From: a virus
Taxonomy: Duplodnaviria > Heunggongvirae > Uroviricota > Caudoviricetes
DNA length: 9,864 nucleotides
Strand: one strand, 5' to 3'
IMG/VR virus record: IMGVR_UViG_2695420817_000017
The notes under the pieces were generated by a model. That model was not told the DNA's origin, ran no database searches, and saw nothing but the letters and a program-made list of their open reading frames with translations. This document shows positions 543 to 3,715 of this stretch, one piece after another. The translations under genes and the position numbers were made by a program. How positions within the stretch are numbered: the stretch's first letter is position 1; the number at the start of each line of letters is the position of its first letter.

Positions 543-1085
543 TTACTTGTCTTTATCCGGCTGAAACTTATCAGGCACATTTCCGGTAGTTTCCATCAGA
601 TAATCGGACAGCATTCGCGGGATGTTTTCATCAAGTTTTGTGCATGCGTTACAGGCTCTGACAACTTCTTTTTTCAGGCCATCCAGCATGACGGGGGTCA
701 TCTGTGGGAAGCTCCTTTGCATAGTAAGCGGGAGGCTGTCCATGATTGATGAAATCTGACTCGCCAGTTTTGAAAGCGCGTACATGCAAAACTCTGTATC
801 AATCACGTCACCGCGATCGCGCTCGTTTTTAAGTTCCTGCGCCTCCGCCTGTGCTGTCAGTAATCTGATCCTGACTCGTAAGAGTTCATCATCATCAATC
901 TCGCCTTTGTCGTTTGTAAGCTGGCTAATTGCATTGTTAACCCTATTGTCTATCACGCTGGCAACATCATAAAACGCCTCACGGCCTTTACGTTCAACGG
1001 GAGTCACTCCCCACTTGTCGAATGCTGTAGCACTTACCCGGCAGCTTTGCGCCATGGTTTTTTTGTTCATCAGGTGCGATTTCAT
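543..1085 (-). CDS. Small terminase subunit, lambda Nu1-like (TerS)
   Basis: ATG at 1085..1083 (the track ORF begins 3 nt upstream at TTG), stop TAA 545..543, 180 aa. The C-terminal two thirds (RLLTAQAEAQELKNERDRGDVIDTEFCMYALSKLASQISSIMDSLPLTMQRSFPQ...LDENIPRMLSDYL) match, from memory, lambda Nu1 (RLTRAQADAQELKNARDSAEVVETAFCTFVLSRIAGEIASILDGLPLSVQRRFPE...LDELIPGLLSEYI), which is also about 181 aa. N-terminal ~50 aa are divergent but HTH-like (MNKKTMAQSCRVSATAFDKWGV). Lies ~135 bp downstream of a cosN site, as in lambda. Confidence 0.8.
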   Translation of the reverse strand: MKSHLMNKKTMAQSCRVSATAFDKWGVTPVERKGREAFYDVASVIDNRVNNAISQLTNDKGEIDDDELLRVRIRLLTAQAEAQELKNERDRGDVIDTEFCMYALSKLASQISSIMDSLPLTMQRSFPQMTPVMLDGLKKEVVRACNACTKLDENIPRMLSDYLMETTGNVPDKFQPDKDK

Positions 1086-1089
1086 CAAT

Positions 1090-1260
1090 ATCCCAACTTG
1101 GTCAAGGTTTCAGGTTGGTGTGTTGGTGTTATCTTTCCCTTTTTATTCATGGAGATAGAGCAAACAACAAAACCACCACCACCACCCTGAAAAAGCTCAT
1201 AAATAGCGAAAAACCGCGAGGTCGCCGCCCCGTAACCTGTCGGATCGCCGGAAAGGACCC
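1090..1260 (-). other. lambda-type cos site: cosQ/cosN (about 1197..1260, 12-nt cohesive-end core at 1219..1230) plus divergent cosB-like region (1090..1196)
   Basis: Minus strand reads GGGTCCTTTCCGGCGATCCGACAGGTTACG|GGGCGGCGACCT|CGCGGTTTTTCGCTATTTATGA. From memory the lambda cos junction is ...CCGGTGATCCGACAGGTTACG|GGGCGGCGACCT|CGCGGGTTTTCGCTATTTATGAAAA..., so the 12-nt cohesive end is identical and the flanks nearly so. Similarity stops after TATTTATGA; the segment between cosN and the TerS start carries (ACC)5 and a tandem GTTGGTGT repeat instead of lambda R-sites. Confidence 0.8.
1172..1186. repeat. (ACC)5 trinucleotide tandem repeat inside the cosB-like region
   Basis: accaccaccaccacc read directly at 1172..1186, between cosN and the TerS start. 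A tandem octamer GTTGGTGT GTTGGTGT also lies at 1114..1129. Confidence 0.9.
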
Positions 1261-1286
1261 GCCAGCCAGAACGGGCCCTAATTTCA

Positions 1287-1670
1287 TCAACCAATCAGCT
1301 TATAGCGACCTTCCCGTGCATTGCGGCGTACACGCTCAATCTTGAGGCATAGCGCCGCATCTGGCTTTTTTGGGACAGATACGCGGCAATATTCAGAAGC
1401 GCGAGGGATATTATTTATCCAGTCAATTACTTCACTTAAATACCATGCCTTACGCCCCTCAGTAACCTGAACACGCTCAGGAAACTCACCACGGGCTTCA
1501 AGGTTTAACAAAGTTCGACGGCTAAGGGTGGTCAGTTCCATAACCTGGTTCATATCTACCAGGCGTTCGCTTAAGCGCATTTTGTCAGCAATAGCCTTTA
1601 ATTCCTCTACTGCTGGATCCGGATACATCATTTCGGCAATTGGCTTAAGGTCATTGTAATGATTCTGCAT
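1287..1670 (-). CDS. AlpA/excisionase-like HTH domain protein (127 aa), function unassigned
   Basis: ATG at 1670..1668 preceded by AAGGGGGAT, 4 nt after the decoration-gene stop, so probably co-transcribed. The central segment LTTLSRRTLLNLEARGEFPERVQVTEGRKAWYLSEVIDWI fits the AlpA/Xis (HTH_17/MerR-like) DNA-binding pattern. Ends ~55 bp before cosN. Confidence 0.6.
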   Translation of the reverse strand: MQNHYNDLKPIAEMMYPDPAVEELKAIADKMRLSERLVDMNQVMELTTLSRRTLLNLEARGEFPERVQVTEGRKAWYLSEVIDWINNIPRASEYCRVSVPKKPDAALCLKIERVRRNAREGRYKLIG

Positions 1671-1681
1671 TGTATCCCCCT

Positions 1682-2023
1682 TTACACACGAGCCAGCGGC
1701 TGAACAGAAATACCTGAGCCAACAAACGCGGCAACCTTTGCCGACAGTTCTTTTACAGACTCAGGCCAGTTCAGAGCATCAACATTTAAAACACCTGTCT
1801 TATAAACCTGTGCCTGTGTTTTTTTCGCTGTGTCGATTTGTACAGCGGAAACATAAACCGCTTTGCCTGCGCTCGTTCCATCCCATACCACTAGCGCACC
1901 AGTTGCATCTTCCTGCATCAGTGGCGTAAACGCAGGTATTACCCCTTTATTGGCTGAAAATATCCCCAGCGTAGTAACCAGTGCTTCAGTGCCAGACATG
2001 AGTTCAGTGTAATGAGTAGCCAT
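1682..2023 (-). CDS. Head decoration protein, lambda gpD-like
   Basis: 113 aa, ATG 2023..2021 preceded by AAGGGGGAG. AFTPLMQEDATGALVVWDGTSAGKAV...QVYKTGVLNVDALNWPE...AAFVGSGISV aligns by eye with remembered lambda gpD ([26 protein letters not shown]...TFYKSGTFRYEDVLWPE...TAFAGTAISIV). Directly downstream of the capsid gene. Confidence 0.8.
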   Translation of the reverse strand: MATHYTELMSGTEALVTTLGIFSANKGVIPAFTPLMQEDATGALVVWDGTSAGKAVYVSAVQIDTAKKTQAQVYKTGVLNVDALNWPESVKELSAKVAAFVGSGISVQPLARV

Positions 2024-2032
2024 TGCTCCCCC

Positions 2033-3079
2033 TTAGCCAATGCGAACGGTAACAAAACGATTGATGCGGGCCGGTATTGGCTGTGGTGCAGAGTGCGTTT
2101 GTACGTACTCAATAGCCGGATCACCAGGCACAATATAGTTTTTCGGTGCAAGTTCGGCTTTAGTCAGCCCCATTCGGATTAGCTCCGGATCCTGAATACC
2201 GCCATAGGCGACAATCCCCTGAAGAGCCGTATTGCCAAGCACCATCAAATCAGGATCAAGGAAATGTTTTTCAGTTCCGTCCTCGTCGGTATAACGTCCG
2301 CTGTAAACAACAATCGCAACATCGCCCATATACCCTTTAAAACTCACCGAATCACCAAGGTCTTTAAGGGCCGTTTCCAGTTCGGAATTAGAACCACGAC
2401 GGGTATCCAGAGCCTCTTTTATCGCTCTGAATGAACGGTATTTCTTCCATACATTACCGCCCATAATGATGATATTAGTGACGCCCTCACTAAATTCTGC
2501 GTAGCTCTCAATATCATCATTTGGATCAAAAGTTTCTTTATCCTTACCTGACCACTCAGCACCGCCAGACTGCGTGATAATATTTTGTGGTTTTATATTC
2601 CAGTCCAGTTCATAACGTTCAATACCATCGCCCTCAATGATATTTTTCCCCGTTGTGATTGCCTGAACAGCAAGCCATTCAATACGTGCACGTATAGCTT
2701 TAGCCTGATTTACAATCGCCTGTTTAACTTTAATATTACGCGCCCCAAAAGCATTGTATTGTTCAGGTGATACACCAGCAGGGCGCACAGCTAACTTATT
2801 TGGATCAATGCTGCTTTTCGGTTTCATATAGCCAGGGCGAATTGTTTTTGATTCGTATCCCTCATCTCGTGAAACTTTACTGCCCACCATAGGAGAGCAA
2901 AACGCCGCGATCGGGATATTTGGATCGTCGATCGTATCAAGAATAATGTCTCTCGATTCAAACATTACCGAGCGAGTGAAAAACAAACTGGTAAACAACG
3001 CATTTAATTTTTTTTGCACATCTTCAGCATTAGCCACCTGCACAAGCTGTGTAGGCGAATATAAATCAACCATACTCAT
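2033..3079 (-). CDS. Major capsid protein, lambda gpE family
   Basis: 348 aa from ATG 3079..3077 (MSMVDLY...); the track ORF extends further upstream, but homology favours the MSM start (lambda E begins MSMYTT). Long blocks match remembered lambda gpE, e.g. ITQSGGAEWSGKDKETFDPNDDIESYA...LDTRRGSNSELETALKDLG...GDVAIVVYSG...MVLGNTALQG. An alternative start lies at 3073. Confidence 0.85.
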   Translation of the reverse strand: MSMVDLYSPTQLVQVANAEDVQKKLNALFTSLFFTRSVMFESRDIILDTIDDPNIPIAAFCSPMVGSKVSRDEGYESKTIRPGYMKPKSSIDPNKLAVRPAGVSPEQYNAFGARNIKVKQAIVNQAKAIRARIEWLAVQAITTGKNIIEGDGIERYELDWNIKPQNIITQSGGAEWSGKDKETFDPNDDIESYAEFSEGVTNIIIMGGNVWKKYRSFRAIKEALDTRRGSNSELETALKDLGDSVSFKGYMGDVAIVVYSGRYTDEDGTEKHFLDPDLMVLGNTALQGIVAYGGIQDPELIRMGLTKAELAPKNYIVPGDPAIEYVQTHSAPQPIPARINRFVTVRIG

Positions 3080-3244
3080 CCTCTTTACATTCATTACAAA
3101 TAATTGTGAATATATTCTATTACCGATGTCTGCTATGCGAATACATGCAACCAAGTGCAATGTTGTATAAAATATGCCGTGACAACTTCAGTGCTGATAA
3201 TTCGTGTTAATGTATTTACTTCCTTTGGTCGGGATTTATGTAGC

Positions 3245-3284: not shown

Positions 3285-3358
3285 GCAGAATTTAAAACGG
3301 TATATTATCGCCGTACGGATCATCATTCCCCGACTGTTGTTTTGCCCTGTTCAGTGCG

Positions 3359-3715
3359 TCAGTGGCCTGCCCCTGCTGGCCTTTTTTTGCCGCCCGGTCG
3401 CGCCGTTCGCGCACTGATTACGCTGTCTGCGATAACCTGCCAGCCCTGCCGCGTTTCGCCGTTCTGGCCTGTCCACTGGCTTACCTGCATGTTACCCGCC
3501 ACGCTCACCAGTTCGCCTTTGTGGTGTTTTGCCAGTGCGTCGGCCTGTCTGCCAAACGCCAGGACGGATAACCACATCGTCGCCGTTCCGTCATCTGCCT
3601 GGCTGCACGGAAGGGGGACCGCCATACTAGCCATCGCCATTTGTGTACCCTTGCTGATGGTCTTTAACTGCGGGTCAGCCACCAGCCGTCCGTAAGCCGC
3701 TATCTGTGCTGTCAT
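3359..3715 (-). CDS. SSB-like OB-fold protein lacking the acidic C-terminal tail (118 aa)
   Basis: ATG 3715..3713 with GGAGAG 8 nt upstream; start overlaps the stop of the upstream ORF (ATGA). YGRLVADPQLKTISKGTQMAMASMAV...WLSVLAFGRQADALAKHHKGELVSVAGNMQVSQWTGQNGETRQGWQVIADSV follows the bacterial SSB OB-fold pattern (G-L-DP..., W..V..FG..A...KG..V.V.G...W.D..G..R). C-terminus is basic (PGGKKRPAGAGH) instead of an acidic DDDIPF-type tail. Confidence 0.6.
   Translation of the reverse strand: MTAQIAAYGRLVADPQLKTISKGTQMAMASMAVPLPCSQADDGTATMWLSVLAFGRQADALAKHHKGELVSVAGNMQVSQWTGQNGETRQGWQVIADSVISARTARPGGKKRPAGAGH

Follow-up and report, generated by a model that had tools for sequence, protein, structure and literature searches.

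Escherichia coli phage-inducible chromosomal islands (PICIs) whose cohesive-end site (cos) combines a lambda-like cosQ and cosN with a different cosB have been published (PMC6092414, PMC6739421, PMC9026076), and it has also been published that some E. coli PICIs encode a small terminase subunit (TerS). In the characterised case, cosB is read by the protein Rpp bound to the TerS of the helper phage, and the helper TerS is essential (PMC6739421). A recent list of satellite packaging strategies comprises mimicry of the helper cos, TerS plus Ppi in the Staphylococcus aureus pathogenicity islands (SaPIs), and Rpp; a cos satellite with its own TerS is not named. Here we describe the cos region of IMG/VR record IMGVR_UViG_2695420817_000017, a stretch of 9,864 nucleotides (the window) that, judged by its sequence, is a Gram-negative PICI, an E. 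coli phage satellite of the cspD-clpS site related to EcCIIHE3034. Positions 1087-1260 (minus strand) are probably the cos of a PICI-type satellite that brings its own TerS and uses the large terminase subunit (TerL) of a lambda-type helper. PICI cos sites are a known kind; the TerS-type variant has been noted, but was not dissected in the literature that we found.

EcCICFT073, with its cos1 and Rpp (Fillol-Salom 2018, 2019; Murialdo & Feiss 2022), has the same backbone and gene order as the window: a capsid E homologue, a decoration D homologue, a small gene, cos, a DNA-recognition gene and a small conserved gene. Both have a lambda-like cosQ and cosN, a non-lambda cosB and a trinucleotide-periodic element at the R3 position. 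However, the gene downstream of cos encodes a 180-aa Nu1-family TerS with a TerL-binding-type C terminus in the window and a 135-154-aa Rpp in EcCICFT073. The repeats at the R3 position are also oriented oppositely: the window has (GGT)n on the top strand, EcCICFT073 has (ACC)3 at bp 55-63. Moreover, unlike EcCICFT073, cosB of the window has an inverted second box, and the window has one cos where EcCICFT073 and EcCIIHE3034 each have two.

EcCIIHE3034 and EcCI18098 share with the window the cspD-clpS site, the att repeat ATGATAGTTAT and a 412-aa integrase (PMC6092414 supplement). The window and EcCIIHE3034 are 97% identical in the int-alpA part and have cosB/terS modules of one type (~90%), whereas the replication and capsid modules are mosaic, and the gene upstream of cos is AlpA-like in the window but a 137-aa gene in EcCIIHE3034. 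The TerS_S strategy of SaPI1 and SaPIbov1 resembles what we propose for the window, with a satellite-encoded TerS, the helper TerL and a satellite-specific site. In contrast to the window, which has a cos-type site with complete cosQ and cosN, these SaPIs use headful packaging from pac and block the helper TerS with Ppi. No Ppi analogue was identified in the island of the window.

The lambda-like cosQ and cosN

Homologues of the cosB region were collected from 8 E. coli genomes and 80 IMG/VR contigs (loci numbered with L below). A lambda-type cosN was present in 72 of the collected regions, which gave 45 distinct sequences for alignment. Counting from +1, the cohesive end's first base, position n corresponds to window position 1231-n. 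The cos region and its downstream gene comprise the following features.

1087-1260, minus strand: whole cos site, from sequence anatomy
1254-1260, minus strand: cosQ GGGTCCT, the packaging-termination signal, -30 to -24 from the left cohesive end
1231-1253, minus strand: cosQ-cosN spacer, with 3' end GTTACG
1219-1230, minus strand: cosN cohesive end GGGCGGCGACCT, 12/12 with lambda, partial two-fold symmetry
1197-1218, minus strand: segment +13 to +34, CGCGGTTTTTCGCTATTTATGA, common to lambdoid phages; +19 to +36 invariant in the 45 variants
1163-1186, minus strand: candidate R3-equivalent block, (GGT)5 at bp 45-59 followed by TTTTGTTGTT; core bp 50-68
1109-1129, minus strand: R2-like inverted box, ACACCAACCTGAA at bp 110-122 (1121-1109), overlapped by two copies of GTTGGTGT
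1087-1099, minus strand: putative direct box resembling R1, AAGTTGGGATATT at bp 132-144, immediately before terS
543-1085, minus strand: terS, 180-aa Nu1-family small terminase, from Pfam, alignment and AlphaFold

A cos site at 1090-1260 had been proposed in the first-pass annotation, and it is real: its right coordinate is the start of cosQ, and its left coordinate lies 5 nt before the terS start ATG at 1085. The same annotation called cosN and cosQ identical to those of lambda. This holds for the cohesive end, where the alignment gave 12/12, and for cosQ itself, but not for the whole segment from cosQ to +34 (1260-1197), which matches lambda at 62/64 positions. In ungapped comparison at equal distance from the nick, the match to lambda is 29/30 over -30 to -1, 21/22 over +13 to +34 (also 21/22 for phage 21), and 6/10 over +35 to +44. 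A blastn search of 1000-1330 against 50,697 phage records gave matches confined to window positions 1185-1262; the 40 best records listed, from lambda, 21, Stx and other lambdoid phages, were 91-95% identical.

The cosQ heptamer is identical in the window, lambda, 21, N15 and EcCICFT073. All unique island variants but one (44 of 45) have it, the exception being GGGGCCT. The cohesive end GGGCGGCGACCT occurs once in the window even at up to 2 mismatches, so that no second cosN was found there; in EcCIIHE3034 (L107 9878) and EcCICFT073 (L007 33309), another cos in inverted orientation lies downstream of the recognition gene, on the minus strand. Predicted nicks fall at 1231/1230 on the minus strand and at 1219/1218 on the plus strand, which would leave a 12-nt 5' overhang. 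The left half of cosN (TACGGGGCG, -4 to +5) is invariant in the 45 variants with a lambda-type cohesive end, whereas the right half differs among related islands. Such variation is expected, because cosN is known to be functionally asymmetric, with a critical left half (PMC4669245). Variants of the cos region upstream of terS were observed at L050, L053, L072-L085, L029 and L032-L034.

Among islands, the left flank on the cosQ side recombines independently of the right flank, and other islands have two alternative versions of the cosQ-cosN spacer. Two unrelated genes alternate directly upstream of cos (window 1287-1670 versus L007 32084-32497): an AlpA-like gene for a 127-aa helix-turn-helix protein at 47 loci, including the window, and a 137-aa gene without assigned function at 32 loci, including CFT073, O157 and IHE3034. 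Each of the two genes has its own version of the spacer. The only predicted "terminator" turned out to be the symmetric cosN itself and was rejected as an artefact. The promoter and terminator scan found no promoter, and the Rfam scan of the window gave no match.

A cosB without lambda boxes

From about +45 on, the resemblance to lambda is lost. Local alignment of +45 to +145 with the cosB of lambda remained at the chance level set by shuffled sequences (z = 0.5-0.6); phage 21 (z = 1.1) and N15 (z = 1.3) were not above shuffles either, nor was PhiR5_1 (z within 0.5 to 1.3). The cosB DNA had no blastn match in the 50,697 phage records. The R3-I1-R2-R1 boxes of lambda are not present, and differing sequences occupy R3-, R2- and R1-like positions. 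The earlier claim that this cosB shares nothing with lambda is right as far as alignment goes, but it overlooks position and composition: at the R3 position, lambda and the window are both rich in G and T (12/24 identical over +45 to +68), and the window repeats fall where the lambdoid R3 and R2 boxes lie. The two repeats named in the first-pass annotation, (ACC)5 and a tandem GTTGGTGT, were both recovered by Tandem Repeats Finder at 100%, at 1172-1186 and as two copies at 1114-1129, respectively. (ACC)5 is the plus-strand view of (GGT)5.

Conservation across the 45 variants singles out three parts of cosB. The stretch +50 to +68 (TGGTGGTGGTTTTGTTGTT), which reads GGTGGTGGT on the top strand at bp 51-59, is 80-100% conserved; ACACCAACCTGAA (+110 to +122) is the longest invariant cosB run; and ATGAAT (+81 to +86) is invariant as well. 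The R2-like box takes part in an inverted repeat of 13 nt with 12/13 complementary positions, TTTCAGGGTGGTG (bp 39-51, window 1180-1192) and CACCAACCTGAAA (bp 111-123). In islands of the O157:H7/IHE3034 type, an R1-like box (AAGTTGGTGTATT) matches the reverse complement of their R2-like box at 12/14 positions; this box is weaker in the window. With this third, direct copy just before terS, the IHE3034/O157-type islands have the layout direct-inverted-direct, as in lambdoid R3-R2-R1. The R-box motif AGGTTGGTG (at most 1 mismatch) is not enriched in the window as a whole (4 found versus 2 expected), and its weight comes solely from the paired inverted placement inside cosB and from conservation.

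A 21-codon open reading frame (ORF) starting at the ATG at bp 81 (MNKKGKITPTHQPETLTKLGY; window 1085-1150, minus strand) spans cosB, and its TGA overlaps the terS ATG. All E. coli variants keep its frame, with mostly non-synonymous differences; the Enterobacteriaceae islands lack it. The ORF may serve as a coupling leader or have arisen by chance. Coding constraint on this ORF was considered as the cause of the invariant ACACCAACCTGAA, but is unlikely, since its other codons change mostly non-synonymously and the Enterobacteriaceae islands do without it.

The island TerS

The TerS of the window contains the Pfam domain Phage_Nu1 (PF07471; residues 64-148, 1e-22) and aligns end to end with lambda Nu1, 21 gp1 and N15 gp1. 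Its best phage match is N15 gp1 (47.5% identity, versus 37% for lambda), and none of the 50,697 phage genomes has a TerS more than 60% identical. A search of one-genome-per-species contigs gave no match.

Residues ~1-50 appear to form a winged helix-turn-helix DNA-binding domain of the N15 type. The predicted recognition helix has the same core, AFDKWGV, in the island TerS and in N15, and in both the wing is shortened by a deletion relative to lambda. In the AlphaFold model (mean pLDDT 64; 68-77 over residues 1-50), the secondary structure runs beta-a1-a2-hairpin-a3, followed by long helices. This N-terminal order of strand, two helices, hairpin and long helix is consistent, at modest confidence, with a winged helix-turn-helix. 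The C-terminal half is lambda/N15-like (LDENIPRMLSDYLMETTG versus ALDELIPGLLSEYIEQSG), a pattern that phage 21 lacks, and the C terminus reads IPRMLSDYLMETTG where lambda has IPGLLSEYIEQSG. The TerL-binding determinant has been placed in the last ~40 TerS residues, which Rpp proteins lack (Murialdo and Feiss, PMC9026076). A C-terminal tail of 12 residues (169-180, window 543-580; NVPDKFQPDKDK / NVPEKLLQKKGE) is not found in the TerS of lambda, 21 or N15.

Covariation of cosB and the DNA-binding domain

Block mutagenesis located R3 of N15 at bp 48-59 (GAGGTTGTTGTT, GAGGTT GTTGTT), with bp 54-59 most important (Feiss et al., PMC4669245), so that N15 has (GTT)3 at bp 51-59. The (GGT)3 of the window lies in the same register. 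It is also equidistant from cosN in Enterobacteriaceae islands whose TerS is 58% identical and whose other flanking cosB sequence is unrelated. Conservation in the same register and the common helix core suggest that the GGT block is the R3 equivalent. Hence, the cosB of the window, which the first-pass annotation called completely different, is so with respect to lambda but has a likely N15 connection, in that the TerS domain is of the N15 type and (GGT)n is in register with N15 R3. We found no literature that links TerS-encoding E. coli PICIs to N15-type specificity.

The likeness to N15 thus comprises the AFDKWGV core, the short wing, the G-N-T periodic element at bp 51-59 and the lambda-like C-terminal half of TerS. 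Yet the middle base of every repeat differs, and the window has GTTGTT 9 bp further out than N15, at bp 63-68. N15 further differs from the window in its cohesive end (GGGCGGCGTCCG), its simple cosB with a remote rR2 and its own TerL, while the island TerS differs from that of N15 in an island-specific C-terminal half (~50% identical) and the 12-residue tail.

Three cassettes occur on one island backbone. The window type combines the N15-type DNA-binding domain with the GGT-rich cosB; islands L101-L103 combine a chimeric TerS carrying a 21-type domain with a 21/PhiR5_1-type cosB; and EcCICFT073 combines Rpp with (ACC)3 at bp 55-63. That cosB travels with the DNA-binding domain is expected if this domain reads cosB. 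The TerS of L101-L103 is 194 aa long (L101 4001-4585); its N-terminal half is nearly that of phage 21 gp1, and its C-terminal half is one residue off the window TerS. Compared by eye, the cosB of these islands and that of phage PhiR5_1 are ~93% identical. Judging from the sequences, this chimera points to recombination within terS and to a role of the C-terminal half that is specific to the islands.

The Rpp-type R3 (ACCACCACC, bp 55-63; L007 32559-32660, EcCICFT073 cos1) is the reverse complement of the window GGT repeat (1172-1186). The match extends over 12 nt (z = 4.5) at nearly equal distance from cosN, and it exists in reverse complement only, as top-strand ACCACCACC is not present at bp 55-63 of the window. 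The same triplet repeat thus occurs in opposite orientation with two different readers, Rpp and, as proposed, the island TerS. In the CFT073 region, a 21-type helper prophage cos was also found.

Source of the large terminase and distribution

Within up to 2.5-4 kb of flanking DNA, no gpA homologue accompanies any of the 86 loci of this TerS lineage, while the island capsid gene lies upstream in 79 and the decoration gene in 80 of them. The best available indication of the partner comes from two close relatives that sit inside the late genes of lambdoid prophages, an arrangement that has been described as the "helper-embedded satellite" (bioRxiv 10.1101/2022.07.18.500453). One is inserted in capsid gene E (L019; NZ_CP147611.1 3511-3523 kb, strain GN06758), and the other in the portal gene (L020; NZ_CP062871.1 4260-4272 kb, Res13-Lact-PEA14-20). 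In both, the island cos and the helper cos are ~13-16 kb apart on the same strand. The host prophages have a textbook lambda cos with R3, R2 and R1, a Nu1 near-identical to that of lambda, and a gpA whose N terminus equals that of lambda in all 90 residues compared. The window matches these lambda-type prophages at 30/30 positions over -30 to -1 and at 63/64 from cosQ to +34. These contexts point to a lambda-type TerL as the partner.

The cosB/terS module occurs in 767 of 5426 complete E. coli genomes (~14%), with intact ORFs. These islands are common in pathogenic E. coli, such as O157:H7, the extraintestinal pathogenic strain IHE3034 and ATCC 25922.

Proposed mechanism and alternative explanations

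The first-pass annotation had read the locus as a satellite cleaved by a lambda-type TerL whose own TerS reads its own cosB, and every comparative test that we ran supports this interpretation. From the sequence anatomy, conservation, TerS domain relationships, co-variation and genomic contexts, we infer DNA binding, TerL recruitment, cleavage and exclusivity as follows. The helper would supply TerL, the missing head-assembly genes (portal, protease/scaffold) and tails, and the satellite would supply TerS. The island TerS would bind the island cosB via its N15-type winged helix-turn-helix domain, with the (GGT)n/GTTGTT block at bp 45-68, in the R3 position, as the primary site, and the inverted box at bp 110-122 and perhaps the direct box at 132-144 as accessory sites. 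Its C-terminal half would recruit the helper gpA-type TerL, which would nick the lambda-identical cosN to leave GGGCGGCGACCT 5' overhangs. DNA would then be translocated into capsids until packaging stops at the next cosQ/cosN. The helper Nu1 would be unable to start at the island cosB, so that the initiation signal would be private while the cleavage and termination signals are shared.

This scheme resembles an engineered case. The chimeric TerS of lambda-N15hy4, which has the packaging specificity of N15, works with the TerL of lambda and packages DNA with an N15 cosB, which the lambda and 21 terminases cannot (PMC4669245). The N15-specific terminase also packages lambda DNA (PMC4669245), and therefore exclusivity may run one way only. 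In this respect, the earlier claim that the site is recognised only by its own TerS goes further than the comparison, which points to recognition by the island TerS. More broadly, and with moderate confidence, we suggest that these E. coli PICIs form a large class whose terminase is the natural counterpart of that of lambda-N15hy4. Their TerS would join an N15-type domain to an island-specific TerL-engaging domain and read an R3 made of (GGT)3 at bp 51-59, together with an inverted accessory box, giving one-way private initiation and independence of the helper TerS. This would be a third mode of hijacking beside helper-cos mimicry and Rpp, with N15-, 21- and Rpp-type cassettes exchanged by recombination at cosN and within terS.

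Several observations weigh against this interpretation. Fillol-Salom et al. (2018, PMC6092414) reported no transfer of EcCIIHE3034 and EcCI18098, the published islands that encode TerS, when the resident prophages were induced with mitomycin, which speaks against function and makes the helper identity tentative. Within cosB, conservation does not extend to the first two GGT units or to the first copy of GTTGGTGT, which show substitutions and an occasional 3-bp slip, and a scan with the consensus of integration host factor found no site between the cosB boxes, so that we claim no I1 equivalent. The window and N15 R3 agree at 7/12 equidistant positions (local z = 1.3), which is short and not significant alone. 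A Foldseek search of the AlphaFold model, itself only moderately confident, gave no significant match in the PDB (the non-significant top hits were MerR-type winged helix-turn-helix proteins and excisionases), and a phmmer search of PDB sequences with TerS recovered neither the lambda Nu1 nor the Rpp structures. Because of this, structural confirmation of the DNA-binding domain is weak. The central domain of TerS is close enough to Nu1 that mixed oligomers with the helper TerS are possible. Overall, the support is comparative, and cleavage, binding and transfer remain predictions.

Such mixed oligomers would be central if the island TerS acted like Rpp, by hetero-oligomerising with the helper Nu1, redirecting the helper terminase and blocking helper packaging, with the helper TerS being essential. 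This mechanism has been established experimentally in sister islands (PMC6739421), terS occupies the position of rpp on the same island backbone, and the central, oligomerisation region is conserved with Nu1. Yet we consider it unlikely here. Rpp proteins of 135-154 aa lack the last 30-40 residues proposed for TerL binding (PMC9026076), whereas the island TerS is full length and keeps the lambda/N15-type C-terminal motif, so that no bridge to TerL would be needed; besides, the alignment with RppA shows no similarity beyond the generic winged helix-turn-helix pattern. A complete cos, including cosB, might instead have been copied from an undescribed N15- or Monarch-like helper, with the island terS redundant or an efficiency booster, as in P4 and SaPIbov5. 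The N15-type DNA-binding domain, the phage-like 21/PhiR5_1-type cosB of L101-L103, and the 'Monarch' group of prophages, which combine a tripartite cosB with the N15 recognition helix (Feiss et al., PMC4669245), would fit such mimicry. It is nevertheless very unlikely, given that the 50,697 phage genomes contain neither a match to the cosB DNA nor a TerS above 60% identity, that this TerS lineage, followed down to 57% identity, lies in an island without TerL in every context examined, and that the prophages hosting the embedded relatives have a lambda-type cosB and Nu1. Monarch, too, may be one of these islands.

If the locus were a decayed prophage remnant, the cos-terS region would be a non-functional lambdoid leftover and its repeats incidental low complexity. 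The absence of transfer of EcCIIHE3034 and EcCI18098 in the single published test (PMC6092414) and the frameshifted ssb that RefSeq annotates in this copy are what one would expect of such a remnant. However, this explanation has only a slight chance of being correct, as it must account for the PICI order of int, alpA, pri/rep, capsid, decoration, cos and terS between att repeats, for a terS ORF that is intact and widely conserved, and for many independent integration sites, including some inside helper late genes. Neither does it sit well with the pattern of conservation, in which invariant runs lie exactly on the left half of cosN, on +19 to +36 and on the cosB boxes, and cosQ is kept in 44/45. 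A satellite cos read by the island's own TerS therefore remains our preferred explanation.

Gene content of the island

The window shows the characteristics of an E. coli PICI: a size of ~10 kb, a unidirectional int-alpA-pri/rep arrangement, a dedicated att site, and no tail or lysis genes. All of its genes are on the minus strand. Besides the cos region and terS listed above, they are as follows.

9864-8626, minus strand: tyrosine integrase, 412 aa
8293-7997, minus strand: AlpA, from Pfam
between AlpA and the DUF927 primase, minus strand: Icd-like and DUF4222 genes
6471-4333, minus strand: DUF927 primase, from Pfam
after the DUF927 primase, minus strand: SSB, from Pfam
to 2033, minus strand: lambda gpE-family major capsid protein
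2023-1682, minus strand: gpD-family decoration protein
1670-1287, minus strand: second AlpA-like helix-turn-helix protein, 127 aa
between the AlpA-like helix-turn-helix gene and terS: 200-bp gap
beyond terS, minus strand: small conserved ORF

Pfam identified the integrase, AlpA, the DUF927 primase and SSB, and the structural genes are limited to those for capsid E and decoration D. E. coli AR_0077 has a copy with 100% identity to the window, located between clpS and cspD and flanked by att repeats ATGATAGTTAT 10.7 kb apart. In the RefSeq annotation of AR_0077, ssb (window 3292-3715, minus strand) is frameshifted, and the 118-aa ORF alone is intact.

Capsid gpE and decoration gpD (window 1682-3160, minus strand) are present without portal, protease or TerL. 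Deletion of the corresponding pair in EcCICFT073 failed to restore lambda plaque formation (PMC6092414), and transfer still occurs upon this deletion, as summarised in bioRxiv 10.1101/2022.07.18.500453.

Implications

Our results introduce no new principle; they combine what is known of PICI cos sites with what is known of satellite-encoded TerS. The specificity of packaging determines what DNA is carried out of a lysing cell. The rules that connect the TerS recognition helix to the R boxes are only partly known in the lambda family. The island family offers a natural series of swaps of cosB and DNA-binding domain on one backbone. It also leads to the prediction that these PICIs, unlike EcCICFT073, should do without the helper TerS. 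The helper range and the packaging signal of these islands are relevant to gene transfer, as well as to engineered PICI delivery vehicles.

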